Shown: positions 2,784 through 44,155 of the stretch, piece by piece | Layout of the letters: each line of letters opens with the position of its first letter | Numbering within the stretch: the first letter of the stretch is position 1 | Sequence record: OR525703.1 | Source of the DNA: Escherichia phage vB-Eco-KMB36 | Strand: one strand, 5' to 3' | Length of the DNA stretch: 44,710 nt | Position numbers and translations under genes: made by a program | Notes under the pieces: model-generated | Database searches by the model: none | Told to the model about the DNA's origin: nothing | The model's input: the letters and a program-made list of their open reading frames with translations, nothing else

Positions 2784-4754
2784 ATGCTATTAACTTTAGC
2801 GCCACAGGGTTCATCTATGAGCTTACTTACATCTCTAATCAGCCACCAGATATGGCTGCAACGCACTGCATCCGGTGAGGTGAAAGACCTCGCGCCGTTC
2901 ATTAAGGAGATGCGGGACGAAATAAAACGGCAGGTGCTGTTATTCGGCGACGACGGGCGAAGCACCGCGCGACTGAATAAACTGTTACGCGACCTTGAAG
3001 AAGCACTTACCGCGCTTACCGGTGACTGGCGGACAAAGCTGACGGAAGACCTTAAGGAGCTTGCAGCGTATGAGGCTGAGTGGAATGTGAAGACACTCAC
3101 GGCTAACGTTAATGCGGAATTTGTTACCCCGACCGCTGAACAGGTGTGGTCCGCCGCCGAGTTTCAGCCATTATCATTAAGCGACAAGCCAGTTGACTTC
3201 ACTAAGCTGATGTCGGGCTGGGGGGAAACAGAAGTCGCGCGCCTTGTAACAGGCGTTAAGATGGGCTTTGTACAAGGCCAGACAACACGGCAGATTGTTA
3301 AGAATGTTGTTGGTGCTGGTGGTTTGGCGGACATTTCAGAACGTAACGCGGCTACTGTAATCCGCACCGCGCTGTCTCATGTATCCAACGAGGCCCGTAA
3401 CGAGACGTACCGCCAGAACGACGACATCATCGAGAAGTACGAGTGGGTGTCGACGCTGGACAGCCGTACCAGTACAACGTGTTTCACGGCTGAAACAGAA
3501 TTAGCGCCCATCGCGGGGATGGACGCGGTAATGCGCGGACTCTATTCAGGAAAAATCCTTACCATCGAACTTTCCAACGGCGAGAAGTTCAGTGGCACCC
3601 CGAAACACCCTGTACTCACGCAATACGGATGGACTCCGCTTGATGAACTCGACCCAACTAAGCATGTCTTGTATACCACTGTTGACAAAGTGACTGTGCT
3701 CGAAACAGTGAAGAACATAAACATGCCAGCCAGAGCGGATTATATTTTTAATACGCTCGCTGATTTCCCCATCAGGAAAATGGTAAGCACGAGTCCCGCG
3801 GCAACAGATTTCTATGGCGATGGAGTGGGACTCAATGGCAAAATCGACATTGTACGGGCCGATTGCAAACTGCGGAACTACGTCCACGCCAGCGGAATTA
3901 AACAATTCAAAAGCGAGGGTTTCAGTCTTATTCATAGCGCCGCTTTGCTGTCGGACGATAGCTCTGGCGATTTTCTCCTCCGGGGTGAATGTCCTGTGAG
4001 TGTGCCCGCGCTTAGCGAGGCCAAGTGTTTTGACCATAGAATAGAAAACTGTTTTGCTTACTTGGGTCCTTCTTATGCACTCAATAGGCGGGACGCCGGA
4101 CTCGAACAATTCTATAGCCCTTTTTTGATTCAAAATGGTGTCGTTAGAAACCCAACCACGGGGTCGATCATGCATGAGTCCGAGCTTCTTGAGAAATGTT
4201 GTTACCGTGGTGGTAGTGACGCCGTAATTCTTGGCTATGATGCTGGCGGGAGTGCCATCTCGGTACAAAGAACAAATATCATCCGCATAAGCGTCGAGTT
4301 TAGAACGTGCCATGTTTATACCCTCTCTAGTAGTCAAGGATATTATACAGCAGGTAGTGCGATAGTCAAGAATTGCAGGGCCAGAGACGGAATGACGTGG
4401 GAAATCGGTAAAGGACCGATGCCCCCGGCCCATTTTGGGTGCAGAAGTACTACCGCACCAGTAATCAGTTCCGAGTTCGACTTCCTCGATAAAGGCGCGA
4501 AACGCGCAGCTAAGGGCGCAGAAGGTGGTACCCAGGTAAGCGCAGACACCACCTATTACGAGTTCCTTAAACAACAACCGGCATGGTTTCAGGATGAAGC
4601 ATTAGGGCCGGTTCGCGGTAAGATTTTCCGTAACAGCGGTATATCGCCGGAAGAGTTTCGCGTAATATCTGTAGATGGTTTCGGGAATCCGCTGACGCTT
4701 AAGCAGATGGCGGAACTCGATAAACGTGTTGCTGATTATCTGAAAGAGGATTAA
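2784..4754 (+). CDS. head morphogenesis protein (SPP1 gp7 / Mu F-like) containing an in-frame intein
   Basis: Extein motifs DSRTSTT...CRARDGMTWEIGKGPMPPAHFGCRS match the Mu F/gp7 signature once residues 233-530 are removed; alternative start ATG 2817. Confidence 0.7.
   Translation: MLLTLAPQGSSMSLLTSLISHQIWLQRTASGEVKDLAPFIKEMRDEIKRQVLLFGDDGRSTARLNKLLRDLEEALTALTGDWRTKLTEDLKELAAYEAEWNVKTLTANVNAEFVTPTAEQVWSAAEFQPLSLSDKPVDFTKLMSGWGETEVARLVTGVKMGFVQGQTTRQIVKNVVGAGGLADISERNAATVIRTALSHVSNEARNETYRQNDDIIEKYEWVSTLDSRTSTTCFTAETELAPIAGMDAVMRGLYSGKILTIELSNGEKFSGTPKHPVLTQYGWTPLDELDPTKHVLYTTVDKVTVLETVKNINMPARADYIFNTLADFPIRKMVSTSPAATDFYGDGVGLNGKIDIVRADCKLRNYVHASGIKQFKSEGFSLIHSAALLSDDSSGDFLLRGECPVSVPALSEAKCFDHRIENCFAYLGPSYALNRRDAGLEQFYSPFLIQNGVVRNPTTGSIMHESELLEKCCYRGGSDAVILGYDAGGSAISVQRTNIIRISVEFRTCHVYTLSSSQGYYTAGSAIVKNCRARDGMTWEIGKGPMPPAHFGCRSTTAPVISSEFDFLDKGAKRAAKGAEGGTQVSADTTYYEFLKQQPAWFQDEALGPVRGKIFRNSGISPEEFRVISVDGFGNPLTLKQMAELDKRVADYLKED
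3480..4373 (+). mobile_element. intein (Hint domain, about 298 aa) in head morphogenesis protein
   Basis: Starts CFTAETEL, block B GTPKHPVLTQYGW, C-terminal VYTLSSSQGYYTAGSAIVKN followed by Cys+1; penultimate Lys instead of His. Confidence 0.6.
3546..4313 (-). CDS. putative homing endonuclease (tandem HTH + Vsr/DUF559-like nuclease) encoded antisense inside the intein
   Basis: 256-aa ORF from ATG at 4313 with upstream GAGAGGG; HTH-like TPASIIAKNYGVTTTTVTTFLKK and VSKTVFYSMVKTLGL; nuclease-like PYNVDFAIESHSIAIEI and ERIKNIIRSGWHVYVL; lies entirely within intein 3480..4373. Confidence 0.45.
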   Translation of the reverse strand: MARSKLDAYADDICSLYRDGTPASIIAKNYGVTTTTVTTFLKKLGLMHDRPRGWVSNDTILNQKRAIELFESGVPPIECIRRTQVSKTVFYSMVKTLGLAKRGHTHRTFTPEEKIARAIVRQQSGAMNKTETLAFELFNSAGVDVVPQFAIGPYNVDFAIESHSIAIEICCRGTRAYHFPDGEISERIKNIIRSGWHVYVLHCFEHSHFVNSGIQDMLSWVEFIKRSPSVLREYRVFRGATELLAVGKFDGKDFS

Positions 4755-6054: not shown

Positions 6055-6136
6055 TTGCCTTGTATGTTGGAATAATTTATTCTTGACATGTAAATCCGGG
6101 AGGCCCGGATTCCAACGTCCAGGGGACATACTGACT

Positions 6137-6838: not shown

Positions 6839-6840
6839 TA

Positions 6841-7890: not shown

Positions 7891-7905
7891 GGTTAAGATA
7901 TAATC

Positions 7906-7930
7906 GAGAGGGACTTCGGTCCCTCTTTTC
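7906..7930 (+). terminator. rho-independent terminator
   Basis: GAGAGGGAC-TTCG-GTCCCTCT hairpin followed by TTTC. Confidence 0.65.
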
Positions 7931-7949
7931 ATTTACTAAGAGGTAAATT

Positions 7950-12385: not shown

Positions 12386-12390
12386 GGAAA

Positions 12391-12416
12391 AGGCCCCGAA
12401 AGGGGCCTTACTATTT
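12391..12416. terminator. terminator hairpin shared by convergent genes
   Basis: AGGCCCCGAAAGGGGCCT hairpin between the major tail gene end and the minus-strand HNH gene end. Confidence 0.6.
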
Positions 12417-12899
12417 ACCGTGGTTCTCGTGGAACCCTAAATCTCTTTCAGCAACTCTCCTCGCGGCAACTGCATCTAGTAGCGTTTTAAAGCATCCGAT
12501 GTGTGTTTTTACGTTATTGTTGAATATCTGTGCGTACCACAACCTTTCTTTCGCGTTCCAGTAAACCCCGGTTACTCCTGATTTATTATTACGCTGTTTT
12601 GACATATTTTTATGGTTTTCCGCATTGGACTTTTTAGCTAAGTTAAGCGGTCTATTGTTTATTCGGTTATGGTCTAGATGGTCTATTTGATCTGACGAGG
12701 TTAGCTTATCGTTAGGATTGTTTAAGTCCCAAGCTATACGGTGCGCCGCGTGCCATTTACCTCTGAAAAATATCCTTCTATATCCGTCTCGCTGTACAGT
12801 ACCTGCCTCCTCTCCAGCCTTAGCCCTCCCGGAACGTGTTACTCTGTTAAATATCCTTCCTGAAATTAAGTCGTATATGAAAAATTCATTCCAGTCCAT
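12411..12899 (-). CDS. HNH homing endonuclease with AP2 DNA-binding domain
   Basis: IDHLDHNRINNRPLNL HNH core and AP2-like SGVTGVYWNAKERLWYAQI; start taken at the ATG 6 nt after AGGAG. Confidence 0.75.
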   Translation of the reverse strand: MDWNEFFIYDLISGRIFNRVTRSGRAKAGEEAGTVQRDGYRRIFFRGKWHAAHRIAWDLNNPNDKLTSSDQIDHLDHNRINNRPLNLAKKSNAENHKNMSKQRNNKSGVTGVYWNAKERLWYAQIFNNNVKTHIGCFKTLLDAVAARRVAERDLGFHENHGK

Positions 12900-12918
12900 A
12901 ATCATCTCCTGTTGCGAT

Positions 12919-12943
12919 AAGGCCCCGAAAGGGGCCTTTTTCT
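12919..12943 (+). terminator. terminator-like hairpin
   Basis: AAGGCCCCGAAAGGGGCC followed by TTTTTCT on the plus strand. Confidence 0.5.
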
Positions 12944-18012: not shown

Positions 18013-18512
18013 TGAGCGACTTATATTTCCCACGTAGCCTCCGCCCTATAGTGTCGAAAGGCTACTCAATGACCAGACGCAACAACGTATGGAGTGTCGA
18101 TTTAGCCGGTGGCGGGGTGCGTCAGGGACGCGACACGTATCACGACGTGTTCCCGATAAGCGTAACCCTGATTACATCGGCGCTAGGGCGGCAGGCGTTC
18201 CTGTCGTTCCTTGAGAAAGTCGACGGCGGTGCGTCAAGTTTCTGGATGGCGCACGACTTCGGCATGGGCATTGAGGATTACCAGGTAACAATTACATCCA
18301 CCATCGCGGAGTCCACCGAAGACGGCATTAACTGGACGATTACCTTCACGGCAACCGCCGAGAAATCGCCGTTCCAGGACCAAGAGAACCAGTGTCTGAT
18401 TAACAATCTTCCAGATTTGTACGGTTGTTACGGGGATTGTCTGGGTAGTTTCCTGAAAATATACGCGAACTACGAAACTACGTTTCCACGAATTTGGGGC
18501 CCGATGCAATGA
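18012..18512 (+). CDS. minor tail protein (distal tail, M-like)
   Basis: Position after tape measure. Confidence 0.5.
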   Translation: MSDLYFPRSLRPIVSKGYSMTRRNNVWSVDLAGGGVRQGRDTYHDVFPISVTLITSALGRQAFLSFLEKVDGGASSFWMAHDFGMGIEDYQVTITSTIAESTEDGINWTITFTATAEKSPFQDQENQCLINNLPDLYGCYGDCLGSFLKIYANYETTFPRIWGPMQ

Positions 18513-19024: not shown

Positions 19025-19386
19025 ATATTAACGACTACACGGGCATACCTTACGACTTTCGCAAGCGCAATTGCTGGCATCATGTGCGCATTGTACGCGC
19101 TGACGCCGGGCTAGAAACCCCGGCGTTCGACGTTACAAGCCCAACGGCGATTAACGAAGCGTTTGACGAAGGCCACCGGGACACGAAGGGGCTTACGAAA
19201 ATCGATAAGCCTGAAAACTTCTGTGCGGTGCTTATGGGATATCGACGCGGCGGTCGTATCGTGTGGCATGCAGGAGTTTACTTCGACGGGATGGTGAGCC
19301 ATTGCGAGCTTGCTTCACGTCAGGTGCGGCTTGACAGGCTGGCGGACCTCAGAGACACGTACACGGAGATTGAATTTTGGCGATAA
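19021..19386 (+). CDS. tail assembly protein (K-like)
   Basis: 121-aa ORF with Cys/His-containing segment; position. Confidence 0.4.
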   Translation: MNINDYTGIPYDFRKRNCWHHVRIVRADAGLETPAFDVTSPTAINEAFDEGHRDTKGLTKIDKPENFCAVLMGYRRGGRIVWHAGVYFDGMVSHCELASRQVRLDRLADLRDTYTEIEFWR

Positions 19387-21932
19387 TCCTGCACTACACG
19401 CGAAACGCTGATGGCGCTTTCGACCGTACAAAACACGTCGGGATGCCGATGGAGTTTGTCATTAACCGTATCCCGGACGGCGTGCCGGTGCGCGTCTACC
19501 TCGGCGAGATTGGCGATGATACTGATGTTACAGACGACTTCGACGCGCTTAAAGACGAAGACGCTGTGTACCACATTATAGAGGGTGCGGGTAGCGGGGC
19601 ACTTGGTGCCGTTAGTAAGGTGTTCGGTTTTATCCTTAAGCCAATTGCCAAGTTGTTTGGTCTGAACATGTCCGCAAACGCCAACTACACGGCGACTAAC
19701 AACCAGACAACGTCACCGAATAACAGCCTTACCGACCGCTCAAACAAACCACGCCCTTACGAGCGCTCCTATGACATCTGCGGGACTGTGCAGACAATCC
19801 CTAATGACCTGATGCAGACGTATAAGGCGTTCAACTCCACTGGTGCTTTGCTGGAGTATTCGTACTATGACGCAGGGCGCGGACATCTGCATATTGAGGC
19901 TGATGGTGTCACAGAGGGCGACACCCTGATAAGCGACATCACAGGTTCCTCTGTTGCCATATATGCACCGTATACGTCACCGAACAACACCACATCGCCG
20001 CAACTACAAATCGGCGACGTCATTGACCAGAAACTCTATGTGACATACTCCAACGACGACGTTGACGGTATTGTACTGAAAGCGCCGAACGACATCGGGG
20101 CCAACCCAAGCGCCGGTGGCACAGCTAAACGTATTTCAACCACAGGCTACATCTACGACCCGTCGGGCGACTCTGCTTTTTCTGAGTTTCTTAGCGTCGG
20201 TGATGTCGCGGTGCTTAGCAACTTCGATGTTGCTGACGTCACTAACCTGAACGGCTCGTTTGAGGTTTTATACGTTGACGACTTTGAGGTTCGGTTGTAC
20301 GTCGGGGATATAGGTAACTGGGGCAACCTTAATAGCGGAGAGACTTACGCACTTACAGAGCGTTCTGACACGTTTATCGGCCCGAGCAACACCTATGACG
20401 TATCTCTTACGGACTGGTATTACATGGTGCGCGGAGAGGTTGACCGGGTACTTGCTAACGTTGCCGGGCAGAACGGCCTCTACAAATACGACGGCGGCTA
20501 TAACCGCACCAGTGTAACCGTAGAACTCCAGTACCAGATGATTGATTCCCAACGCAACCCGTTGAGCGACATTTACACGGTACAGGCTACAATTACGGGC
20601 AACAATACTGATTACGTCGGTACGTCTATCTACGGGCAATTGCCTACTGCGTCGCGTTTCCGCGCCCGCATGCGCCGTATAACTAATTTCGACAAGGACT
20701 ACAACGGTACAGTAAGCGACGAGATAACGTTCATCAACCTGTACGGTCAGTCACTGGACACTACCCCGCATTACGGCAACCGAACTACAGTACATTGCGC
20801 CCGTAAACAGACACCACGCGCCGCCAGTATCGATAACCCTGAACTGCGCATGATTGCTACAGAGATGTGCTACAAATACCTCGGCAATGGGGTATTCAAC
20901 ACCGTAATGACACCTAACACTCAGGCGGTGCAATCACTAATTCGACTGGCCCGCGACCCGGCGGTAGGTAACTTAGAACTGACAACCGCAAACATGGACA
21001 AGTTACTTGCCGTGCAGGAAGAGATTGAATCCTATTTTGGCAGCGAATTAGCGGGACAATTCTGCTACACGTTCGACGACTACGACACCACGATGCAGGA
21101 CATCGTTCAGACTATAGCCGAAGCCGTATTCTGTACTGCGTACCGCAAAGGTGCAGATATTATGCTGCGATTCGACCGTCCGGTTGCGGGGCCTGAAATG
21201 GTGTTCACCCACCGCAGTAAGACGACCGGTACGGAGAAATGGACACGCACGTTCAATGATTCGACAACCTACGATAGCCTGTCGTTCTCGTACATCGACC
21301 CGGATACTAACGTACAGGAAACGATTTATATCCCGGAAGAACTCGGCGCAAACACCGAGGAATACGAATCGAAGGGCGTGCGCAACTATCAGCAGGCGTA
21401 CTGGCTGGCGTGGCGTCGCTATCAGCGCAACGCGTTAAGTAAAGTTGTCGTAGAGTTCGAAGCTACGGAAGAGGGTGCGCTCGCTACGCCCGGCGGCGTA
21501 ATCAGCGTGGTTAAAGGCTCCCGCATCGCGCCGCAGGATGGTTATGTTGTCGCCGTTAATGGGCTTACGCTTACGCTGTCGCAGCCGGTTACGTTTACTC
21601 CGGGGGATGACCACTCCATCATTCTTAAGAAGCGAGACGGTTCGGTGCAGAGTATCTCTGTTATCAAAGGAAGCCATGACCGCGAGGTGATTATGCTCTC
21701 TGCGCCGGAGGAAGCCATCTACACAGGGAATAGTGCGCTAAAAACTGAGTTTTCATTCGGCAACGAAGCAAGGCATAATGCACAGAAGATAGTTGTTTCT
21801 TCAATCGACCCGGGCGACGACCGCACGGTCAAGATTACAGGCTACAACTATGACGACGGATTCTATAAATACGACGGCGTCGCTCCATACGGTAGCGGTT
21901 TCTCCGACGGATTCAGCAATGGTTTTAATTAA
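19377..21932 (+). CDS. tail tip / host specificity protein (J-like)
   Basis: 851-aa ORF in tail tip block. Confidence 0.55.
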   Translation: MAIILHYTRNADGAFDRTKHVGMPMEFVINRIPDGVPVRVYLGEIGDDTDVTDDFDALKDEDAVYHIIEGAGSGALGAVSKVFGFILKPIAKLFGLNMSANANYTATNNQTTSPNNSLTDRSNKPRPYERSYDICGTVQTIPNDLMQTYKAFNSTGALLEYSYYDAGRGHLHIEADGVTEGDTLISDITGSSVAIYAPYTSPNNTTSPQLQIGDVIDQKLYVTYSNDDVDGIVLKAPNDIGANPSAGGTAKRISTTGYIYDPSGDSAFSEFLSVGDVAVLSNFDVADVTNLNGSFEVLYVDDFEVRLYVGDIGNWGNLNSGETYALTERSDTFIGPSNTYDVSLTDWYYMVRGEVDRVLANVAGQNGLYKYDGGYNRTSVTVELQYQMIDSQRNPLSDIYTVQATITGNNTDYVGTSIYGQLPTASRFRARMRRITNFDKDYNGTVSDEITFINLYGQSLDTTPHYGNRTTVHCARKQTPRAASIDNPELRMIATEMCYKYLGNGVFNTVMTPNTQAVQSLIRLARDPAVGNLELTTANMDKLLAVQEEIESYFGSELAGQFCYTFDDYDTTMQDIVQTIAEAVFCTAYRKGADIMLRFDRPVAGPEMVFTHRSKTTGTEKWTRTFNDSTTYDSLSFSYIDPDTNVQETIYIPEELGANTEEYESKGVRNYQQAYWLAWRRYQRNALSKVVVEFEATEEGALATPGGVISVVKGSRIAPQDGYVVAVNGLTLTLSQPVTFTPGDDHSIILKKRDGSVQSISVIKGSHDREVIMLSAPEEAIYTGNSALKTEFSFGNEARHNAQKIVVSSIDPGDDRTVKITGYNYDDGFYKYDGVAPYGSGFSDGFSNGFN

Positions 21933-26286: not shown

Positions 26287-26574
26287 TTAACTATAATAGC
26301 TCGCTATTAGGTCGTCAACCTGTTTAAACGAACCAACGACAAAAACATTTGCACCACGTTTACGCATCCGCTCGTGCTCTCGTAACTGGTGCGGGTCCGG
26401 CTTCGTGTTTTCGTCTTTCTTAACCTCGACGAACCAGATGATGCCACCAGGGAGAATTACCAGCAGGTCAGGAGCTCCCACTCTATTTTCGTACGACAAT
26501 TTGCGTACAAGGCCCCCCATGGCCTCGAATCGCTCTTTTGCGTATTTCTGTACGCGGCCCTCTTTAGTCGCCAT
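26287..26574 (-). CDS. VRR-NUC-like nuclease
   Basis: PDLLVILPGG...WFVEVK pattern. Confidence 0.55.
   Translation of the reverse strand: MATKEGRVQKYAKERFEAMGGLVRKLSYENRVGAPDLLVILPGGIIWFVEVKKDENTKPDPHQLREHERMRKRGANVFVVGSFKQVDDLIASYYS
26290..26318 (-). promoter_or_regulatory. sigma70-like promoter with AATAG-N4-CTATT palindrome
   Basis: Minus strand reads TTGACG, 17 nt, TATAGT; palindrome at 26295..26308. Confidence 0.5.
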
Positions 26575-27070
26575 GGTTGCAAAACTCTCCGTGCAGTTTT
26601 GCCCTAAATTCTCTCAGCGATTCCTCTGCTTCATTTAGGTTCTGGAAATACCCAATCTGGTAGCGTGTACCTTTAAAAGCAACTCGAGCGCACCAAGCAT
26701 TATGAGGCTTACTCCAGTTAACCCCTTTCACGCCGCTGGTGTTCGTAACTGGGGTCTTGCGGTTATGGTTCTGTTGAAATTCATCCGCAAGCCGTAGGTT
26801 ACAAATCCGGTTATCGTCCCGTATGCCGTTAATATGGTCTATTTGCTTAGTTGGCATTTCTCCGTATACCCACCACCACGCCAGCCTGTGTGCGCGGTAA
26901 TACACCCTATTCCATCCTAACAATATGTACCCTTTACGGTCCTTGTAGGTAACAACATCTCCGGGTTTCGCGGTCTGGCATCTGTGCTTGACCCATTCAA
27001 ATATCCCGGTATCCGGGTCGTATGACAGAAAATTTTTTATGTCGTCACTTGGTGCTTTCATAATACGCAC
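26564..27070 (-). CDS. HNH homing endonuclease with AP2 domain
   Basis: QIDHINGIRDDNRICNL HNH core, AP2-like SGVKGVNWSKPHNAWCARV. Confidence 0.7.
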   Translation of the reverse strand: MRIMKAPSDDIKNFLSYDPDTGIFEWVKHRCQTAKPGDVVTYKDRKGYILLGWNRVYYRAHRLAWWWVYGEMPTKQIDHINGIRDDNRICNLRLADEFQQNHNRKTPVTNTSGVKGVNWSKPHNAWCARVAFKGTRYQIGYFQNLNEAEESLREFRAKLHGEFCNHGD

Positions 27071-27143: not shown

Positions 27144-27275
27144 TCATTCCAGCACCCACAGATAAATTGCGATGAACATACCTAATACGGCTACCATCAT
27201 GCCGTATTGACCCTCATGACAGTAGACACCGGCGGCGAATCCCGCCAGTACCGCGATAATCAGTTTACTTAGCAT
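27144..27275 (-). CDS. hypothetical small membrane protein
   Basis: 43-codon hydrophobic ORF whose ATG overlaps the polymerase stop. Confidence 0.3.
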   Translation of the reverse strand: MLSKLIIAVLAGFAAGVYCHEGQYGMMVAVLGMFIAIYLWVLE

Positions 27276-30200
27276 AGCGTTTTAACTCCGCACCTTCCGC
27301 TACAAGAGGGAAACCCTCCGCCCACTCAGGCAGCGAACACATTAATTTTTCCAGTTCAGCCACCGTGTACTCTGGGGCATCTGGAGTTTCGCACACCAAT
27401 TCATCGTGTACCGAAAGCACGATGGGGTACCCGCCGCCTTCAACGTTAATCATCGCATACGCAAGTAAATCACGGCACAGCGCCTGAACAATGTTTTCGC
27501 AGGCTTTACCGCCGTGGGTGTACAGGGTAGTCCATTGGCGGGTTAACTGGTTTTCCCCCTGATACTTGATTCGCACATTCGTGTTTACCCGTCCGTCTTC
27601 GTCCGTTTCCTTTGTTACACTAACGCCGATTCCCGGATACGAGAGGATGCGACCTGACGGCAACTCCATGCATAACCACCAACCAGGAACCTCCCTGCCG
27701 GATGAATCAAATTCTACAGTACGCCATATGCGGATAGCCCTTTCCCCATTCCTTCGCAAGTGTGCTCCCGCCCAAAATTCACGACCAGGATTACGCACAG
27801 CGGCTAAAATTCCTTCTTTAAGGTCACGCCAGAACGCTACTGTTTCCGGGTGTGACTCGCGCCACATACGCTTGATTGCGTCGCATGTGCGCCACACTTT
27901 CTTGTCCAGAATATACGATGGTCGGTCATCCTTCTCACCTGGATGCGGGGGGCGCTTGGCTTCCTGGATGCGCGCCCATTCATATCCTCTCGCGGTGGCC
28001 GACCAGATGTGGTCCGGGAATGTACCGTCCATTGTTTTTGCCATCTCAATAAGGTCAAGACCTAAGTTTTTAGCAAACTGAACGAACGCCCCGACGCCAC
28101 CCTCGTAGCCTAGTCCAAGCTCGCAGTTATGCGCCACAAGAAAGCCAGAGCCTGAGGCTATAAGAAAACGGTTGCCGTCTTCCACATCAATCAGGTCGTA
28201 CACCGGCTCGCAGTAGGTTAATTTCCCGCTCAAGTTCAGCAATGCGGGCAACGGCTGCATCATACTTTCGTTGAAGCTCGGGTATTTGCCGTCTGTTTCG
28301 GCAGTTTTCAGAACGGCTGACAAACCGAATGTTTCCAGGTTCGTAGTTACCGTCTGTGTCGATTCTATCCATTTCGAGGTTCGGGTCATCCCAGCCTTCC
28401 AGAGTTTGAACATATCTAAGAAAAGACCTTTTATCAGTCCTCCACTGGTCGAATACCGTGATGCCTCTTGCCCCATAGTTTTTATAACCCTTATCCCTGG
28501 GGCTTGTTGTTCGCGTGATCGCCGCGGACAGCCGGTTGAGTAATCGCGTTCTGTGCGCATCATCCGGCATTGCGTCTTCGTAGCAGAAATACTGTTTACG
28601 ATATTTTTTTGTTGCTTCAAGGGCGCAGCGGTTGCATTGAGTGGTTTTACCCGCTCTGACGTTGTCATAATAGACCCGCCCCGGCATCTCTCCGCAATCA
28701 CATTGGACGAGTAGTTGTCTTTGGCCTTGTCGTTTTGGTAACTCGCGCAGGATAACCAAGCGTCCATACCTCTCTCCAGGGCGAGGCCCATCATATATCT
28801 GTTTGAAGCGAGTTGCTTTGCCTGCTTCCAGGAATGCGCCAAGATTTTGTGGTCTTCGGTCATTAGCACCCCGTCCACATTTATTACCGGTTTCCACCCC
28901 ATAAGGTGCGCGCCTTTTGTATTCACCCATTTTTCACCGCTCCATACTTTATCTGTTGATGTAACCGCCATAATATCCTTAAATCCGCCATCGGTCAAAA
29001 CTTGGGTATGACGGTGAAGGCACGCTTTACCAATCTGGCGCAAGTCTTTACGTTCTTTCTTAATATAGTCGGGGTCCATGCCAAACATCTTACCTGCGGT
29101 TACGCAATAAATATCCAACCCGGCGCGGAAAGTATCAAGCGCGGTTTCTTCGCCTGCCAACCACGCAAGCCCACGACCCTCAACGTTAGAGTAATCGGCA
29201 ACAACAAACTTATGCCCCACTTCCGGTATGATGCAGCTACGTACCGTCGATGCCGTTAGCTTGGCTACATCAAAACGGCGGTGTGCCCGGCCTTTAAGTA
29301 ACGCTGAAATGCCTTTATCCAGTTCATCATCGTGATAGTACCCGCGCGCCAGGTTCTGCGGCTGGAAGCCTTTACCCGCCCATCGCAGGGTACGTTTTGC
29401 CCCGCCATACTGTAAGCACCCGCGACGACGATCGTCAGACGAGCGGCCTAACAGCAGTGGGTTATATTTCGTTGACGCAGTGGATGCCGCCCCGAGGCGC
29501 ATTTCTATAATCGCGCGGGCATCGTCCGGTAAATCATCGTCTGCCAGCAGGTCGTTAAGCGTCGACTTCTGCGCGTTATGGATTCGGTGTGCTGGTGCGA
29601 GTTCACGCAGAATAGGCAGAAAGTCCTTACCGGTAAGCGAGCCGCCGTATTTGCGTTGGGCTTCTTCCTGTAACTGCGCTTTGTGTTTTTCCACGGCTTC
29701 GATTGCGGCTTCCGCCAGTGCAACGTCGACCTTAAACCCGCGGTCATTGATTAATTGGTCCAGCTCCAGTACACGGTCCTCGAACTCGGAGTTACCCCAA
29801 CGCGGCAGCTTATGGAAGACTTCGCGCATCGCAGTGATGTCGCTCACGGCGTACTTAATGAACAGCGCCCACTCGTCCGGGTGTGTTTCTGCGGTGTAGC
29901 GGCGGATTTTGTAATTCTTCGGTGTCGGTTTAGAGAAACGCTGAATCAGCGCCTTGCCGCGTTTATCTTTCGCGTTGTCCGCAGACACGCCCAACACTTC
30001 GCACAGTGCATCAAGTGACCCCGGCAGCGCGTGGCGAAACGCCCAAATCATCGTATCAATGGTGTTGCTTACCGGAATATCAAAGCCCCAGCAGTGCTTC
30101 ATGATGAGCCTGTCGAACATTAAAAAGTTATGGCCCACGATTTTCATACGTCCACGCATAACATTACGGAGAGCAACGCGGAGGCTTATTGGCATTACTG

Positions 30201-30360
30201 GTTCGGAAGTGCAATCCCATACTTCTACAGGACCGTCATCAACGGCATATGTACAAATTATAACCTCGGTCGTTGGATGCTCCGCGTACGCGTACGACCC
30301 AACTTTCTTTAAGTCCGCTCCAGAGAATGTCTCAGTATCTAGGTACAATAAACTAGTCAT
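27265..30360 (-). CDS. DNA polymerase I (family A) interrupted by an intein
   Basis: Exo motif YLDTETFS, polymerase motif A VADYSNVEGRG, C-terminal VHDELV; 299-aa insertion between RQIGKA and CELGLGYEGG. Confidence 0.8.
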   Translation of the reverse strand: MTSLLYLDTETFSGADLKKVGSYAYAEHPTTEVIICTYAVDDGPVEVWDCTSEPVMPISLRVALRNVMRGRMKIVGHNFLMFDRLIMKHCWGFDIPVSNTIDTMIWAFRHALPGSLDALCEVLGVSADNAKDKRGKALIQRFSKPTPKNYKIRRYTAETHPDEWALFIKYAVSDITAMREVFHKLPRWGNSEFEDRVLELDQLINDRGFKVDVALAEAAIEAVEKHKAQLQEEAQRKYGGSLTGKDFLPILRELAPAHRIHNAQKSTLNDLLADDDLPDDARAIIEMRLGAASTASTKYNPLLLGRSSDDRRRGCLQYGGAKRTLRWAGKGFQPQNLARGYYHDDELDKGISALLKGRAHRRFDVAKLTASTVRSCIIPEVGHKFVVADYSNVEGRGLAWLAGEETALDTFRAGLDIYCVTAGKMFGMDPDYIKKERKDLRQIGKACLHRHTQVLTDGGFKDIMAVTSTDKVWSGEKWVNTKGAHLMGWKPVINVDGVLMTEDHKILAHSWKQAKQLASNRYMMGLALERGMDAWLSCASYQNDKAKDNYSSNVIAERCRGGSIMTTSERVKPLNATAAPLKQQKNIVNSISATKTQCRMMRTERDYSTGCPRRSREQQAPGIRVIKTMGQEASRYSTSGGLIKGLFLDMFKLWKAGMTRTSKWIESTQTVTTNLETFGLSAVLKTAETDGKYPSFNESMMQPLPALLNLSGKLTYCEPVYDLIDVEDGNRFLIASGSGFLVAHNCELGLGYEGGVGAFVQFAKNLGLDLIEMAKTMDGTFPDHIWSATARGYEWARIQEAKRPPHPGEKDDRPSYILDKKVWRTCDAIKRMWRESHPETVAFWRDLKEGILAAVRNPGREFWAGAHLRRNGERAIRIWRTVEFDSSGREVPGWWLCMELPSGRILSYPGIGVSVTKETDEDGRVNTNVRIKYQGENQLTRQWTTLYTHGGKACENIVQALCRDLLAYAMINVEGGGYPIVLSVHDELVCETPDAPEYTVAELEKLMCSLPEWAEGFPLVAEGAELKRYAK
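28126..29022 (-). mobile_element. intein (Hint domain, 299 aa) in DNA polymerase
   Basis: CLHRHTQVLTDGGFKDI, TEDHKILAHS, VYDLIDVEDGNRFLIASGSGFLVAHN then Cys+1; boundaries checked on nucleotides. Confidence 0.65.
28187..28930 (-). CDS. HNH endonuclease gene overlapping the intein in the +1 frame
   Basis: Zinc ribbon CDCG...CNRC and HNH core DRIDTDGNYEPGNIRFVSRSENCRNRR; own GGAG RBS and ATG; frame offset from polymerase verified on nucleotides. Confidence 0.55.
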   Translation of the reverse strand: MGEYKRRAPYGVETGNKCGRGANDRRPQNLGAFLEAGKATRFKQIYDGPRPGERYGRLVILRELPKRQGQRQLLVQCDCGEMPGRVYYDNVRAGKTTQCNRCALEATKKYRKQYFCYEDAMPDDAHRTRLLNRLSAAITRTTSPRDKGYKNYGARGITVFDQWRTDKRSFLRYVQTLEGWDDPNLEMDRIDTDGNYEPGNIRFVSRSENCRNRRQIPELQRKYDAAVARIAELEREINLLRAGVRPD

Positions 30361-30826
30361 GGCAATAAAATTCCTTGTGCAGTTTTTCTCTTAATTTCTT
30401 TACGGCGCTTTCTGCTTCTTCAAGAGTTCCGTAGCTACCAGCGTTATAACTTTTGTAGTTAAAATGTACACGCCCGTAAAATCGGTTGCCGTTTTTAACT
30501 ACTCCCTTAACTCCGGTTCTAGCTCCCTTATTTTTAGCGTTTCGCACATTATCAGCGGTTGTTGCTTTCCTTAGGTTAGAAATCCTATTGTCTAACCTGT
30601 CACGGTTTATATGGTCAAGAGGCCCCTCGGGCCATTCACCGTACTCGAAAAACCAAGCAAGCCTGTGGGCCATGTAATATCTACCCATATAAGGTATGCG
30701 CCAGTATCCACTACTATTGATGCACCCAGCGATGTCTCCGGGTTTTCCTCGTCTGTACGTAGGTTGTATCCATGTGAATATTCCGGTTTCTCGGTTATAA
30801 CTAAGAAAATCTTTTATATGTTCCAT
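30353..30826 (-). CDS. HNH homing endonuclease with AP2 domain
   Basis: LDHINRDRLDNRISNL HNH core, AP2-like TGVKGVVKNGNRFYGRV; start at ATG 30826 after GGAG; stop overlaps polymerase start. Confidence 0.7.
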   Translation of the reverse strand: MEHIKDFLSYNRETGIFTWIQPTYRRGKPGDIAGCINSSGYWRIPYMGRYYMAHRLAWFFEYGEWPEGPLDHINRDRLDNRISNLRKATTADNVRNAKNKGARTGVKGVVKNGNRFYGRVHFNYKSYNAGSYGTLEEAESAVKKLREKLHKEFYCHD

Positions 30827-30834
30827 TCTGACTC

Positions 30835-30859
30835 CGGTAAAAAGGCCCAATGAAGGGCC
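30835..30859 (-). terminator. rho-independent terminator
   Basis: On minus strand GGCCCTTCATTGGGCC followed by TTTTT, immediately upstream of the HNH RBS. Confidence 0.6.
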
Positions 30860-30880
30860 TTAGTTAAATTGATTCAGATA

Positions 30881-31507
30881 TTAGCGACGGCGACGTTCGC
30901 GGCGTGGTGCTTCATCTTCTTCGTCATCCTCAAGGTCATTGACGCTTGCAGCGACTTTAGAACCACCGAACGCTTTACCTTCGCCTACGTATTTAATCGC
31001 CAGCAGGTTAACCCCGAGAACTTTATATTTCTGGCTGAACCAGATTTCGACGCTTACGTTAGCGACGCAGCCGCTGTAAACTTGTTCACCTTCAATCTGT
31101 TCGCCGTCTACATTGAAGTCCTGCTCTACCTGAGTCTCACCTTTTTTAGAGGTAACAATCAGCGGCTGTTTCTGTGCCTTCGCTTTGAAGTAGAAGCCCT
31201 CCGGGAAGTCTTCAAACGGATTGTCACGCTCAGCAATGTCTTTAATCGCACATTTATCCATGTGCTTACCTTCGCCGTAGTTAGACTTCATCCACTTCTC
31301 AGCGGCGGCTGCACCTAACGCTTCTTCAACTACAGCGTAAACGGTGTCGTAGAGCGCGTCGATTTGCGCGTGGTCGGACGGCAGGATAATAGTCGCGCTG
31401 TACTGACCTTTAGTGATTGAACCATCATCATTTTCACGGTCTTTTTCGCGTTCGAATACGTTAACCCAAGCAGTGTTTACTTTACGCAGATTTAATTTCA
31501 GCCCCAT
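30881..31507 (-). CDS. ssDNA-binding protein-like (acidic C-terminal tail)
   Basis: 208 aa with C-terminal DLEDDEEDE tail; adjacent to exonuclease gene. Confidence 0.4.
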   Translation of the reverse strand: MGLKLNLRKVNTAWVNVFEREKDRENDDGSITKGQYSATIILPSDHAQIDALYDTVYAVVEEALGAAAAEKWMKSNYGEGKHMDKCAIKDIAERDNPFEDFPEGFYFKAKAQKQPLIVTSKKGETQVEQDFNVDGEQIEGEQVYSGCVANVSVEIWFSQKYKVLGVNLLAIKYVGEGKAFGGSKVAASVNDLEDDEEDEAPRRERRRR

Positions 31508-34007: not shown

Positions 34008-36269
34008 CTATTCCAAATCCTCCTCTGTCACTATCAGCATTTCATTCGGTTCGTATATTGTCTTCGGAATCTTGTTATCGTTTATGCCCCACGGCAACCG
34101 GTATTGCTTAGGGATCGGCCTGTTGTTGTTATCCAGCCCCGAGACTATAACCCCAGCCTCGTGCATCTCTTCCAGTTTCTTTCGAAGGTCGTTATTAGCG
34201 TTAATTGGTACGCCGTAACTATCCTCTTTCGCGGCTTTGACGATAGCGGACATAGAAAACCCCCGCTTGTCGTCGCCCTGCTCCTGCAATTTACCCAATG
34301 CGTAAATAACCGTAGCCTCTTTGGTGTCCAGTTTCTCGAACTGGCCCACCTTTTCTTTAACGGCTTCCTTCTGTTCGTCGGTCATACCTTCTACTTTCTT
34401 CACGAAGACAGAGAAGGAGTTAAAGTTAACAAAGACATCGATGTGCGGATTTCCTGCGTCAAAATCGCGGACATCATCACTACTGTACCCTTCCGGTAGT
34501 CCCATGAAATTGTGAGTTGGTTCTTTCTTTTCAGGTGGTTCCGCTATCTGAATCTTCTGTATTACGAACCCTCTCGCTTTCTGCCGTTCTCCGTTTCGAT
34601 TCTTTATGTGATACAGGTTTATCTCTAAGTTATTGTCGTTGTCCGGCTTATGCAGGAACATCCCGTTATCAATGGAGTTGTGAAAGTCACTTCCACCCTT
34701 CGGCATCATGCCGTTTTCGGATGGCACAGTTTCGTCGATGTTTTTAGTTGGGTGCACCATAGCGCCTACTGCGGCGTTCAGCGTCGACGCTATTTCGTTA
34801 AGTGCCTGTGCTGCTTCTTTCATCGACCTGTTGTCGTTCTCGTCGAAGCCCGGTATGCAAGTTTGCAGAGTATCAAACGTAACCTTTACAATTTTCTCTT
34901 CACCGGCGACACGGCGCATCATTCTCACCGCCTGGCGGCGCCACGTCTCATCGAGTAAGTTACACCCATCCGCAACACAATCGATAATGTGCAAGCGGTC
35001 AAGGCTGTCACCGAGGGCGATTTGCAAAGACTTTTTATGCCGCTCGAATGACTGCGCACCTTCACCCGCGAAAATAAATGCATGCCCTTCTGCGACCTCT
35101 GCCCCGCCGAACGCATATCTTTTTTCAGCGGCTATAGCGGCGTCAATCGCCATACTAAATGTTGACTTACCGGTATGCGATTTTGCGCAAATGTAGAATG
35201 ATTCGTTAGTCTGCATAAGGCCATCTACGACGGAGTAAGCAGGTTCTTTTTCAACTTCCGGCTCGTCTTCAAGGTCTTCCAGCGTGCAAGTTACAGGCTC
35301 TTCGTTCTCTGTGCGGTGCAATTCCTCAATCTCTTCGTCCGGTAAATCAGGCAAAGCCGCACGGATGCTGTTAATACTGATAGGTTGCTTGTCTACGTTA
35401 AGCTCGTCTGGGAGGCCACACATACGCAGGGCCAAATGTTGCCGGCGGTTAAGCTCGGTGCAAGCGCCGTTGTTTGTGTGCTGACACACGAAGCGCACTT
35501 CTTTACCGTCAAGCATGATGCTGGTGGAGCCTTTTCCGGTGTGCAGGTGTTCGTTAGGGCAAGGCACTTCGTACCCGCGACCGGAAGATAGAGCGTCAAG
35601 GCCAAGCTCCGCTTCGCAGAAATGAGCTATATCTGCGTTAAGCCCGTGCTCATCGGCAGCAAGCGTCTTAGCTTCACGTTTACGCAACCCCATCTCTTCG
35701 GCTTTCTTGATGTACCGCTCGGCACGGATAACACGCCCTTCTGTAACCGTTATCTTCGACTCTTTATGCGGCAGGTAGATAAGGCGGTTGCCGTCTTCTG
35801 TGCAGTGGTCGCGCAATGCTTCGTCTATTTCTAACTCCGCACAAATAGCCCGTTGCACCATCCACGCGTCGTTAGAGTTGAACGGAGTGCGAGCCGGAAC
35901 CAGAACGCGGAAAGCGTAGTCACCGTTTTTACACGCGTGCTGGTGCGACGCCGTTGTGTGCAGAATATTGAAGAACGGCGCGTTCTTGAATTTGCGGGTG
36001 AGGTCGCGGTACTGGGTACGGTTTAGATGGTCGAAATCGAACTTAACCACACTGTCTTCCAGAATCGCGTTTTTACGACGACCGCCAACAGGCGCAATAG
36101 CTTTCTGCTTAATCTTGGCAGCGTCGTACTCTTCCTTAGTCCAAGACGGGTCCACGGACAAACGCTTCGATGTATCGCAGACATACTCGACAAACTGCTC
36201 CAGCGGCATTTCACGCGCTACAGGGTTTTTATCGAATGTGTTACGCAGTGTTGCAAAAACAATATTCAT
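34008..36269 (-). CDS. replication protein, primase/helicase-like P-loop NTPase
   Basis: 753 aa; Cys/His zinc-binding segment CPNEHLHTGK...CQHTNNGAC; Walker A-like AKSHTGKST. Confidence 0.55.
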   Translation of the reverse strand: MNIVFATLRNTFDKNPVAREMPLEQFVEYVCDTSKRLSVDPSWTKEEYDAAKIKQKAIAPVGGRRKNAILEDSVVKFDFDHLNRTQYRDLTRKFKNAPFFNILHTTASHQHACKNGDYAFRVLVPARTPFNSNDAWMVQRAICAELEIDEALRDHCTEDGNRLIYLPHKESKITVTEGRVIRAERYIKKAEEMGLRKREAKTLAADEHGLNADIAHFCEAELGLDALSSGRGYEVPCPNEHLHTGKGSTSIMLDGKEVRFVCQHTNNGACTELNRRQHLALRMCGLPDELNVDKQPISINSIRAALPDLPDEEIEELHRTENEEPVTCTLEDLEDEPEVEKEPAYSVVDGLMQTNESFYICAKSHTGKSTFSMAIDAAIAAEKRYAFGGAEVAEGHAFIFAGEGAQSFERHKKSLQIALGDSLDRLHIIDCVADGCNLLDETWRRQAVRMMRRVAGEEKIVKVTFDTLQTCIPGFDENDNRSMKEAAQALNEIASTLNAAVGAMVHPTKNIDETVPSENGMMPKGGSDFHNSIDNGMFLHKPDNDNNLEINLYHIKNRNGERQKARGFVIQKIQIAEPPEKKEPTHNFMGLPEGYSSDDVRDFDAGNPHIDVFVNFNSFSVFVKKVEGMTDEQKEAVKEKVGQFEKLDTKEATVIYALGKLQEQGDDKRGFSMSAIVKAAKEDSYGVPINANNDLRKKLEEMHEAGVIVSGLDNNNRPIPKQYRLPWGINDNKIPKTIYEPNEMLIVTEEDLE

Positions 36270-36394
36270 TTCTTTTTCTCCGCACGTTCTAAGGCTTCCT
36301 GCATACGGCGCATTGCGCGGTTCATCTTTACCGGTGCGAAGAAATCAGCGCCGTGTTTCTGGCGGCGTAGCTGTGGAACTATTAACTTTGTCAT
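36266..36394 (-). CDS. hypothetical small protein
   Basis: 42-codon ORF with AGGA RBS, overlapping primase start. Confidence 0.3.
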   Translation of the reverse strand: MTKLIVPQLRRQKHGADFFAPVKMNRAMRRMQEALERAEKKK

Positions 36395-36462
36395 TGTATA
36401 ATCCTTGTGCTTACTTTGATGATTTGTACTTTAGCCCCGACGTTCTGGCGTTGGGGTTTCTT

Positions 36463-36675
36463 TTATTTACAACCAGAAAACCACGTGTGCTCGGAATCAT
36501 AGAAGCGGCATTTACTTAACACGTCTACCGGCATCTTAATAATTCGCGTCGGTTCCGACAAATGATTAGGTTTACATATTTCTGCATAGAATCCGCTGTC
36601 GGTAATTTCTGACGCAAACTTAAACCAGTATTTAACTTTACCGTTTTCAAAGTAACAACCCATACGCCCAATCAT
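36463..36675 (-). CDS. hypothetical protein
   Basis: 70-aa ORF. Confidence 0.4.
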   Translation of the reverse strand: MIGRMGCYFENGKVKYWFKFASEITDSGFYAEICKPNHLSEPTRIIKMPVDVLSKCRFYDSEHTWFSGCK

Positions 36676-37709: not shown

Positions 37710-37927
37710 ATAACACTGAGCTGAAAACAGTAGCGGAATATAACCATAAAATACGGGTCATGCGTCGGGGTGCCGGGCTGGAGCGGTTTTATAACATGTG
37801 GCGCACTGCGACGCGCGACCACGAGTTTCTTAGTACCGGGTATTATTTCAATAAAGGCATTATCCCGATTCGTGCCTGCAAGGATTACGGTTGGGTGCGG
37901 AGTTGCAAAGGCTTGGAGATTTTATAG
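37706..37927 (+). CDS. hypothetical protein
   Basis: 73-aa ORF, coupled. Confidence 0.45.
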   Translation: MNNTELKTVAEYNHKIRVMRRGAGLERFYNMWRTATRDHEFLSTGYYFNKGIIPIRACKDYGWVRSCKGLEIL

Positions 37928-37962
37928 TGTACCCCGACTTAGAAGATGATGAGGATTAAGGT

Positions 37963-38118
37963 ATGAGAGAAGCATTCGAACGTTGGGCCGTCGTCGAAGG
38001 TCTGCCGGTTAACAAGGGTTCAAAGAAAGAGTATCTGAACGTTAAGACACGTCTCGCGTGGCGGGCGTGGAAAGCTGGTGTGCAATCCTTGATTGAAAGA
38101 GGGGTGAGATATGGGTGA
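37963..38118 (+). CDS. hypothetical small protein
   Basis: 51-codon ORF with GAGGA RBS. Confidence 0.35.
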   Translation: MREAFERWAVVEGLPVNKGSKKEYLNVKTRLAWRAWKAGVQSLIERGVRYG

Positions 38119-38314
38119 GTGGATTAAGTGTAGTGAGCGGATGCCTGAAGGAACTAGTGACATCATTGTCGCCTGTTCGGATGGAATCGTAATGTCAGGT
38201 ATTTCTTATTCCCGCCGTAAAGGATTCTACATAGCTGCATTGGAGTACGATGACGATGAGCCTGTTACAGATGTTACCCACTGGATGCCATTACCTGAGC
38301 CGCCGGAAGTGTGA
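38111..38314 (+). CDS. hypothetical protein
   Basis: 67-aa ORF. Confidence 0.45.
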   Translation: MGEWIKCSERMPEGTSDIIVACSDGIVMSGISYSRRKGFYIAALEYDDDEPVTDVTHWMPLPEPPEV

Positions 38315-38438
38315 TGTTCAATAGTTTGGGATTTTACCGAGTGACTTACGCTGCTACACAGCAGCGTATCATTTTTCTCATTTTTGTTCTATTTCACCAA
38401 ACGCAACAATCGAAGCAACTATTGCAGGAGATGCAACA

Positions 38439-38609
38439 ATGAAACTGAATGACATCGTTACCTGGACCGGTAGAAACGGAGAAAAGCGATTCGGACTTAT
38501 TGTTGCGTCAGACGGCAACAAGTACCGTGTTATGCGATGGTGTCAGTGGGCACGACGCCCGAGGTACTACTGGATTCGTGGCGAACGATTATCTTTAAAA
38601 CACCAATAA
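38439..38609 (+). CDS. hypothetical small protein
   Basis: 56-codon ORF with AGGAG RBS. Confidence 0.35.
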   Translation: MKLNDIVTWTGRNGEKRFGLIVASDGNKYRVMRWCQWARRPRYYWIRGERLSLKHQ

Positions 38610-38616
38610 AATTTAC

Positions 38617-38645
38617 TTGCACACTGGGATAGAATAGGCTACTAT
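38617..38645 (+). promoter_or_regulatory. sigma70-like promoter with AATAG-N4-CTATT palindrome
   Basis: TTGCAC, 17 nt, TACTAT; palindrome at 38633..38646. Confidence 0.5.
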
Positions 38646-38675
38646 TCATTTACACAAACGAGAGGAGAGACAGAG

Positions 38676-38843
38676 ATGAAAGCAGTAACTAAAGATGAGT
38701 TTTTCAGCACAGTAGAAGGTCTTATGTATCACATGGTTATTAATGCGGGTACGCCAGAGTCTATCTACATAGATAGCGGTAATAATCTTGTCGCTAAAGC
38801 AACATGGAGTTACCCGGAAACCGTGTATGAGGTTGCGCAATGA
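38676..38843 (+). CDS. hypothetical small protein
   Basis: 55-codon ORF with GAGAGGAG RBS. Confidence 0.35.
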   Translation: MKAVTKDEFFSTVEGLMYHMVINAGTPESIYIDSGNNLVAKATWSYPETVYEVAQ

Positions 38844-39067
38844 CCCCCGCAAAAGCACGTGCGCTGTTACGCCGCAATGGGATTCTTGATGAGGTGGACA
38901 TCCTTGTAGAGAAATACGGCATACACATGATAGGTCGCCAGCCGAAAGGCGATATGCGTTGGATGGCGGGGGTCCCCGGTACGCCTGGCGTGTCATACGG
39001 CGACACATTAACCCATGCGGTCCATACTTACATTATTGAGTCGGTACTAGGAGAAACCAATGAGTAA
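38840..39067 (+). CDS. hypothetical protein
   Basis: 75-aa ORF. Confidence 0.45.
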   Translation: MTPAKARALLRRNGILDEVDILVEKYGIHMIGRQPKGDMRWMAGVPGTPGVSYGDTLTHAVHTYIIESVLGETNE

Positions 39068-44062: not shown

Positions 44063-44155
44063 TACATCCCGCCCAATCCCCTTATATAATCCCTTTAGAC
44101 GCGTAGGGCGCGTCTGGTGCGCTCTGATGGTCAGACGCATATGCAAGGGGATTCT

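Follow-up and report, generated by a model that had tools for sequence, protein, structure and literature searches.

Three free-standing homing-endonuclease-like genes (HEG1 to HEG3) lie in the genome of Escherichia phage vB-Eco-KMB36 (KMB36; OR525703.1), whose 44,710 nucleotides, on one strand, form the window analysed here. All are on the minus strand: HEG1 at 30353-30826, HEG2 at 12411-12899 and HEG3 at 26564-27070. HEG1, the main subject of this text, separates the gene for a single-stranded DNA-binding protein (SSB) from that of a family A DNA polymerase, and the features at this junction are as follows.

30837..30861, minus strand: intrinsic-terminator hairpin of the SSB gene, AAGGCCC-UUCAUU-GGGCCUU then UUUAC; upstream boundary of the HEG1 insert
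30348..30836, minus strand: HEG1 insert relative to the empty site, from blastn breakpoints and junction alignments; 489 nt against 25 nt in phage K1G
30353..30826, minus strand: HEG1, free-standing HNH(N)-AP2 endonuclease gene, 157 amino acids, between the SSB and DNA polymerase genes
30095..30360, minus strand: HEG1-linked allele of the polymerase gene, its first ~265 nt; candidate co-conversion tract and immune target region
27265..30360, minus strand: family A DNA polymerase gene, 1031 amino acids including a 299-residue intein; DNA_pol_A and exonuclease Pfam matches, phrog_17/7766

Kagunavirus and Jerseyvirus siphophages (subfamily Guernseyvirinae) match KMB36 over its length, and terminase genes are found at both ends of the window (large terminase, 3-1253; small terminase, 44117-44701), so the stretch is an essentially complete, Kagunavirus-like coliphage genome of ~44.7 kb. 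The closest relatives are fPoEco01, fEg-Eco19, VIPECOMC04 and VIPECOTPH05A, which are ~91-93% identical to KMB36 in mosaic blocks. Gene distribution was followed by tblastn in a phage collection of 50,697 records, KMB36 itself standing outside it, and the counts given below refer to about 150-500 related Guernseyvirinae records, varying by locus.

Read in the direction of transcription, the SSB gene (30881-31507, minus strand, Gp2.5-like) is followed by its hairpin, and a 66-nt RNA that takes in this hairpin with its flanking bases has a folding energy of -19.8 kcal/mol (z -3.4). A preliminary description of this DNA had given HEG1 its own terminator and ribosome-binding site. The hairpin is present, but since it is also kept in the HEG1-less phages K1G, fPoEco01, Golestan and BPS11T2, it is the terminator of the SSB gene; the ribosome-binding site does belong to HEG1, with a GGAG (30832-30835) placed 5 nt from the ATG at 30826. 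A simple terminator scan reported neither this hairpin nor those beside HEG2, probably because stem extension consumes the U-run, and both were confirmed by sequence reading and RNA folding. At the other end of the gene, the HEG1 stop codon (TAG, 30353-30355) is found inside ATGACTAG (30353-30360), where the HEG1 and polymerase reading frames overlap by 8 nt. The overlap noticed earlier is therefore real, although the stop does not fall on the start codon itself but 2 nt past the polymerase ATG (30358-30360). After the same hairpin, K1G reads TAAGGGTCAAAAATA-ATG, the native ribosome-binding site and start of the polymerase gene. Homology between KMB36 and K1G stops directly after ...GGGCCTTTTTAC and picks up again within the polymerase gene. 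The HEG1 insert includes both the GGAG site and the 8-nt overlap with the polymerase start, and it has displaced the native polymerase ribosome-binding site, leaving a weak AGGA within HEG1, 11 nt upstream of the polymerase ATG. At the same junction, Golestan carries an unrelated 279-nt open reading frame (ORF) and fPoEco01 has ~210 nt of unrelated, unannotated DNA, both placed after the native ribosome-binding site and ATG. The promoter-like site nearest to HEG1 is upstream of the SSB gene (31591-31563, 11/12 matches).

Orthologues of HEG1 (98-99.4% amino-acid identity) occur in five records of the collection (EM1, VIPECOTPH05A, P AB-2017, fBC-Eco01 and VIPECOMC04), all of them overlapping the polymerase start, and the remaining matches reach at most 46% identity. 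As DNA, the SSB-polymerase junction is matched by 153 records, five of which span the HEG1 insert while the rest fit an empty site or shorter inserts. In a wider protein database, homologues at 73%, 68% and 65% identity come from divergent metagenomic phage contigs of ~40 kb. There too they have an Enc34-type SSB gene on one side and a family A polymerase gene on the other. Even at this distance they still overlap the polymerase start by 8-11 nt, and one of the contigs has three HNH_3 genes around the polymerase gene. Because these homologues occupy the same junction, the HEG1 lineage is site-specific over considerable divergence, yet it is rare within the genus.

HEG1 also comes with a particular version of the gene that it precedes. 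In a sliding comparison, the first ~260 nt of the KMB36 polymerase gene are 91-95% identical to those of the HEG1-carrying phages and 66-75% identical to those of K1G, fPoEco01 and Golestan, while downstream of this tract the identity is ~90-95% in phages with and without HEG1 alike. The divergent tract begins at the start codon and reaches about nt 265, with a nearly unalignable core (nt 151-240) and a 6-nt indel. When 253 nt of it were used as a query, identity was at least 91.6% in 5 of 5 HEG1-carrying records and in 0 of 269 others (60-80%). Among those listed, the HEG1-less records aligned over the full tract are 6 nt longer, and at the protein level two extra residues are present in four of four HEG-less alleles and missing from seven of seven HEG1-lineage alleles. 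The segment formed by HEG1 and the tract sits in different backgrounds, since its carriers differ elsewhere: the polymerase intein of KMB36 is absent from the examined HEG1-carrying phages EM1, VIPECOMC04 and VIPECOTPH05A, and EM1 differs in its polymerase 3' allele (68-74% identity). Such a linkage is the pattern expected of co-conversion and immunity, in which the enzyme would target the neighbouring gene and repair would copy in the resistant allele.

The domain make-up of the three proteins can be described in some detail. All exceed the curated cut-off (24.8 bits) of the Pfam family HNH_3 (PF13392), with 56.5 bits for HEG1, 46.7 for HEG3 and 26.4 for HEG2, and all match the phrog_99 family "HNH endonuclease" (E-values of 2e-58, 1.5e-64 and 2.7e-49, respectively). 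In a 43-sequence alignment that includes them, D71, H72, N80, R81, N84 and N96 (HEG1 numbering) are invariant, which fits the HNN motif variant of phage HNN-AP2 enzymes (PMC2248197). The three free-standing HNH genes of the preliminary description are thus borne out. Its AP2 domain needs another footing: the Pfam AP2 family (PF00847) has a curated threshold of 33.3 bits that none of the three reaches, and at a relaxed threshold it matches HEG3 (16.3 bits, E 0.012) and HEG2 (15.5 bits, E 0.021) but not HEG1. As these matches are sub-threshold, the assignment rests on structure and homologues. Many full-length homologues at 35-50% identity are annotated with both PF00847 and PF13392, and a confident structure model of HEG1 combines an I-HmuI-like nuclease core with an AP2 fold. 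In this model, the predicted core has the beta-beta-alpha-metal fold of a characterised HNH homing endonuclease, and the predicted AP2 part is a three-stranded sheet on a helix, superposable on solved AP2 domains. The closest solved structure is that of I-HmuI from Bacillus phage SPO1 (PDB 1u3e), with a sequence identity of ~24%. A sequence search of the PDB matches I-HmuI marginally (E 0.42). I-HmuI is a nickase encoded by a group I intron and equipped with NUMOD/helix-turn-helix (HTH) DNA-binding modules, whereas HEG1 is free-standing, lies upstream of a polymerase gene and carries an AP2 domain.

Pairwise identities among the three proteins are 43%, 32% and 31%, and they are old paralogues that owe nothing to recent duplication. 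HEG1 is under strong purifying selection, its synonymous to nonsynonymous changes relative to orthologues being 19:1, 21:3 and 21:2 where the random synonymous fraction is 0.20. For HEG3 compared with BPS11T2 there are 17 synonymous and 12 nonsynonymous changes. From this synonymous excess it follows that these are maintained genes and not decaying relics, and with their catalytic residues intact all three products are predicted nucleases. The GC contents of the genes (42.4%, 41.9% and 47.1%, compared to 50.6% for the genome) are read as foreign composition.

The other two genes occupy sites of their own, with these features.

12390..12409, no strand assigned: left copy of the terminator hairpin flanking HEG2, AAGGCCCC-GAAA-GGGGCCTT, read from the sequence
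12411..12899, minus strand: HEG2, HNH(N)-AP2 endonuclease gene, 162 amino acids, in a bidirectional terminator that separates the tail-tube gene from a convergent minus-strand module
12919..12938, no strand assigned: right copy of the HEG2 hairpin, upstream of HEG2 on the minus strand; from sequence and folding
26564..27070, minus strand: HEG3, HNH(N)-AP2 gene, likely start ATG 27061, 165 amino acids, between a 33-residue ORF and a VRR-NUC gene

Compared to VIPECOMC04, the HEG2 insert extends from 12410 to 12918, between the plus-strand tail-tube gene and the convergent module. The empty site of VIPECOMC04 has a single bidirectional terminator, and in KMB36 there are two 20-nt palindromic copies of it. 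A 46-nt RNA containing the left hairpin folds at -20.6 kcal/mol; the upstream hairpin is without a U-run on the minus strand and so would permit read-through into HEG2. In fPoEco01 the same slot is taken by another HNH gene, I-HmuI-like and oriented the other way. Orthologues of HEG2 are found in four records, from 536P11 and Ro145 phages, and the insert is spanned in 4 of 445 records. The HEG3 reading frame is equally real, but it had been started at a GTG (27070), and the likely start is the ATG at 27061, which overlaps the stop of the 33-residue ORF (ATGA). The end of HEG3 overlaps the start of the VRR-NUC gene by 11 nt. Instead of the insert (26570-27057), K1G, fPoEco01, VIPECOMC04 and VIPECOTPH05A have a 147-nt segment (153-nt ORF) and Golestan has 24 nt, while EM1 carries HEG3 plus an extra ORF. 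This slot has the look of a cassette position, filled in relatives by the 153-nt ORF, which is hydrophobic and membrane-like (seen in the records of two relatives, 2628-2774 and 26831-26977), or by nothing. HEG3 orthologues (at least 80% amino-acid identity) are more widespread, with 54 records, mostly of Salmonella Jersey-like phages such as SETP3 and BPS11T2, and the gene adjoins the VRR-NUC gene in 40 of the 40 records listed. Non-orthologous matches to the three genes are all below 60% identity, and no record of the phage collection was found to carry the three together. Since each slot is empty or otherwise filled in relatives, HEG1, HEG2 and HEG3 are accessory, non-core genes in polymorphic slots; the comparison with HEG-free relatives proposed earlier as a check yielded no core genes at fixed positions.

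Two further nuclease genes are associated with inteins.

28126..29022, minus strand: polymerase intein, residues 447-745, CLHRH...VAHN|C; boundaries from intein-less relatives and splice-junction residues
28187..28930, minus strand: nested HNH ORF, 247 amino acids, out of frame inside the polymerase intein; phrog_374, E 7e-47
3480..4373, plus strand: head-morphogenesis intein, 298 amino acids, in the Mu-F-like gene 2784-4754; junctions TSTT|CFTAE...IVKN|CRARDG
3546..4313, minus strand: antisense ORF in the head-morphogenesis intein, 255 amino acids, tandem HTH and Vsr-like (PD-(D/E)XK) endonuclease; likely start 4313

The polymerase intein, absent from orthologues of 2169-2199 nt, is present in 162 phage records and measures 897 nt in every record listed, but its nested gene is almost never annotated. 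Beside the phrog_374 match of this ORF, a match to the endonuclease VII family is weak. Selection was compared over the central 534 nt, which are indel-free, with the intein of the Dhillonvirus AV129 (83% identity). In the nuclease frame there are 60 synonymous and 42 nonsynonymous changes; in the intein frame the ratio is 22:80, near random (expected synonymous fraction 0.23), and in the third frame it is 13:89. At the intein ends, it is the intein frame that is conserved (9:3 and 9:2), and this frame has no stops in three phages. It follows that the nuclease is read in a frame other than that of the intein and is under purifying selection, whereas the intein frame stays open across the centre but shows no amino-acid selection there. 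AV129 carries the same 897-nt intein with its nested ORF at 101-997, and finding it in another genus suggests transfer between genera. A promoter-like TTGACC-17-TATTAT (10/12) is located within the intein at 28970-28998 on the minus strand, ~40 nt upstream of the nested ATG, and as a consensus match it might give the nested ORF its own transcript.

The head-morphogenesis protein has 656 residues in KMB36 against 347 in relatives. Its intein gives a weak Intein_splicing match and is present in only three phage records, the DNA relatives of its antisense ORF all being at least 99.7% identical. Three homologues of this ORF have 37-54% identity, one of them with HTH_7 and REase_MTES_1575 domains, and two of the three are again antisense within a Mu-F-protein intein, with the sense frame open across the whole contig. 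Homology and fold both identify the ORF as a nested intein nuclease. When the two ~895-nt inteins were compared with each other, no similarity was found. A 2025 preprint (10.1101/2025.01.02.630785) reported out-of-frame and antisense nucleases from the inteins of actinophages. The intein nucleases of KMB36, more unusual than its free-standing genes, are fresh examples of this known architecture; they differ in that their hosts are enterobacterial siphophages (Guernseyvirinae and one Dhillonvirus) and that frame-specific selection is quantified here.

KMB36 thus has five homing-endonuclease-like genes, three free-standing and two intein-associated, as first counted, and they are gathered mainly around the polymerase gene; ten further ORFs in KMB36-specific segments were scanned and no more nuclease genes were found. 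Together, the three HEGs and two inteins make up about 7% of the genome (arithmetic from coordinates). A census using a panel of 11 nuclease proteins and the relatives' annotations gives four such genes in VIPECOMC04, three in fPoEco01 and at least three in EM1, with two to four in subfamily relatives. The high density that had been stressed is accordingly typical of the subfamily and normal for other phage groups, and the phenomenon is already known. There are 6-8 HNH genes in the ~44-kb phages Xp10, OP1 and Xop411 (PMC2248197); homing endonuclease genes number 15 in T4, and RB16 carries six of the HNH-AP2 type (PMC2993671). Free-standing HNN-AP2 genes are multi-copy in Xp10/OP1/Xop411, T1, T5 and RB16/RB43 (PMC2248197; PMC2993671). 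For Jersey-like phages, both homing endonuclease genes and inteins have been counted among the accessory mobile elements (PMC8425127), and a capsid-morphogenesis intein is mentioned in the announcement of Snoke (PMC6776784). The proposal that the polymerase locus is a hotspot finds support, as this neighbourhood is repeatedly occupied in relatives. In the replication module, the filled positions are exonuclease-SSB, SSB-polymerase, the polymerase intein, directly after the polymerase gene, before VRR-NUC and after the helicase gene. The helicase of VIPECOTPH05A itself contains a canonical in-frame LAGLIDADG intein of 347 residues (19274-20314). In the structural module, the filled positions are portal-terminase, the intein of the head-morphogenesis gene and the site after that gene, the spanin region, and the site following the tail-tube gene. 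This distribution of genes suggests invasion.

Several observations were made along the way in the relatives and elsewhere in the window. VIPECOTPH05A has an unannotated HNH gene just after the polymerase gene (17834-18298), possibly 5'-truncated and 92% identical to VIPECOMC04_00037, and VIPECOMC04 has an HNH (phrog_99) gene annotated between two "Rz-like spanin" fragments (37823-38887), as if inserted in the spanin region. In KMB36, the helicase-primase gene region (34086-36671) has undetectable nucleotide similarity to the three closest full genomes, and its protein is a full-length phrog_3228 match; a whole allele appears to have been swapped within an otherwise ~92% identical genome. An unusually long ATG ORF of 565 residues (6235-7932, minus strand) runs antisense to the scaffold and major-capsid genes (6083-7890, plus strand). 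It was rejected as an extra element, having no Pfam or PHROG match, and is probably a chance open frame.

Taken together, the three ORFs are quite probably active free-standing HNN/HNH-AP2 homing endonuclease genes, each with an I-HmuI-like His-Me core, a C-terminal AP2 domain and its own site. A model for HEG1 can be proposed. Positioned just past the SSB terminator, HEG1 would share a read-through transcript with the polymerase gene and be translated from a GGAG site of its own. When a HEG-less relative infects the same cell, its allele would be nicked or cut by the enzyme, most likely at a target within the ~265 nt that open the polymerase gene. Recombinational repair off the HEG-carrying genome would then copy in HEG1 and the adjacent non-cleavable polymerase 5' allele. 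Since the insert has done away with the native ribosome-binding site of the polymerase and overlaps its start by 8 nt, translation of the polymerase is probably coupled to that of HEG1. We infer nuclease activity, the target site, homing itself and this coupling. HEG2, HEG3 and the two nucleases borne by inteins share this lifestyle but are independent elements.

Such a gene would not be without precedent. The two-domain architecture of the KMB36 HEGs is common to the HNN/HNH-AP2 genes of Xp10/OP1/Xop411, T1, Rtp, T5, RB16, RB43, RB49 and JSE, and their AHRLAW, WP, DH, DNR and NLR boxes match the description given for the Xoo phages (PMC2248197). Phage HNN-AP2 genes resemble those of KMB36 in that they come in several dispersed copies, whose positions differ from one related genome to the next (PMC2248197; PMC2993671). 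The Xoo study found no conserved flanks and proposed sequence-independent spread (PMC2248197), whereas in KMB36 the sites are exact relative to empty sites, and HEG1 combines strict site fidelity across divergent phages with a linked flanking allele. A second parallel is offered by the seg and mob genes of T4, for instance mobE between nrdA and nrdB, which are intergenic insertions beside conserved replication or nucleotide-metabolism genes. Their cleavage of a neighbouring gene and co-conversion of flanking markers correspond to the linkage of HEG1 and polymerase (in part after the review PMC2988022). The families differ: seg proteins are GIY-YIG and mob-type proteins are HNH without AP2, and the Kagunavirus genes are known here from sequence.

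Some points weigh against homing as proposed above. No sigma-70-like site was seen between the SSB terminator and HEG1, and HEG1 expression is therefore assumed. Within Kagunavirus, the HEG1 gene is 93-97% identical in nucleotides and the SSB gene 91-100%; with conservation no higher than that of its flanks, HEG1 gives no sign that would date a recent sweep. A co-conversion tract was also looked for beside HEG3, and no clear pattern was seen. The linkage of HEG1 to its allele could reflect the shared ancestry of one recombinant segment instead of target immunity, and vertical descent from far back, with many losses since, could account for the orthologues of 65-73% identity found in divergent phages.

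These last points lead to the strongest of the alternatives, in which the genes are vertically inherited relics, gained long ago, repeatedly lost and no longer mobile, with the polymerase 5' allele marking a segment shared by descent. The divergent homologues at the same junction and the ordinary conservation of HEG1 agree with this, but strong purifying selection and intact catalytic residues argue against decay, while the HEG1 segment is found in differing genomic backgrounds and the slots hold unrelated inserts. We consider it unlikely. A benefit to the phage, whether or not the genes home, is a decidedly unlikely reason for their upkeep: purifying selection, tight integration into replication-module operons with overlapping start and stop codons, and the structural proximity of I-HmuI, as a nickase, would suit either the marker exclusion of co-infecting relatives or nickases that stimulate recombination or replication. 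The genes are however rare in close relatives, so any benefit must be dispensable, and this explanation is itself compatible with homing. HNH proteins of the HK97 terminase-associated type are not known to have the HNH_3 and AP2 domains found here, where the fold is I-HmuI-like. A role as HNH accessory factors of the DNA-packaging machine (HK97 gp74 type), suggested in the fBC-Eco01 paper for two HNH genes, Gp45c and Gp49c, one of them the HEG1 orthologue (PMC9825357, citing Kala et al. 2014), is highly improbable and was rejected on gene position and distribution, the HEGs being at 12.4, 26.6 and 30.4 kb, not adjacent to the terminase and portal genes at 0-2.7 kb, and missing from most relatives, while related phages are reported to be headful (pac) packagers (PMC6776784).

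Returning to homing, a bolder version of it may be entertained, although we regard it as doubtful. HEG1 together with the ~265 nt at the 5' end of the polymerase gene would form one mobile cassette that controls translation initiation of an essential gene, and the KMB36 inteins would extend to enterobacterial phages an architecture known until now from actinophages only. If so, a clean loss of HEG1 would cripple polymerase synthesis, a "translational hostage" strategy that would stabilise the selfish gene.

Four results seem worth keeping from this genome: sites defined exactly against empty ones, an unbroken linkage between HEG1 and one polymerase 5' allele, the lost polymerase ribosome-binding site, and the unannotated intein nucleases, one out of frame and one antisense. 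For annotation, HNH genes of the KMB36 type are better labelled accessory homing endonucleases than packaging factors or core replication genes, and the nuclease ORFs nested in inteins go unannotated in nearly all of the ~160 records with the polymerase intein. In biotechnology, the pair of HEG1-type and K1G-type polymerase genes delimits a region of ~265 bp in which the target of a candidate site-specific HNH-AP2 nickase could be mapped. For phage evolution, KMB36 would offer a clean natural case in which a free-standing endonuclease gene moves together with a resistant allele of the essential gene that it adjoins, and such genes may drive the mosaicism of replication modules in therapeutic-candidate coliphages and in Salmonella phages.

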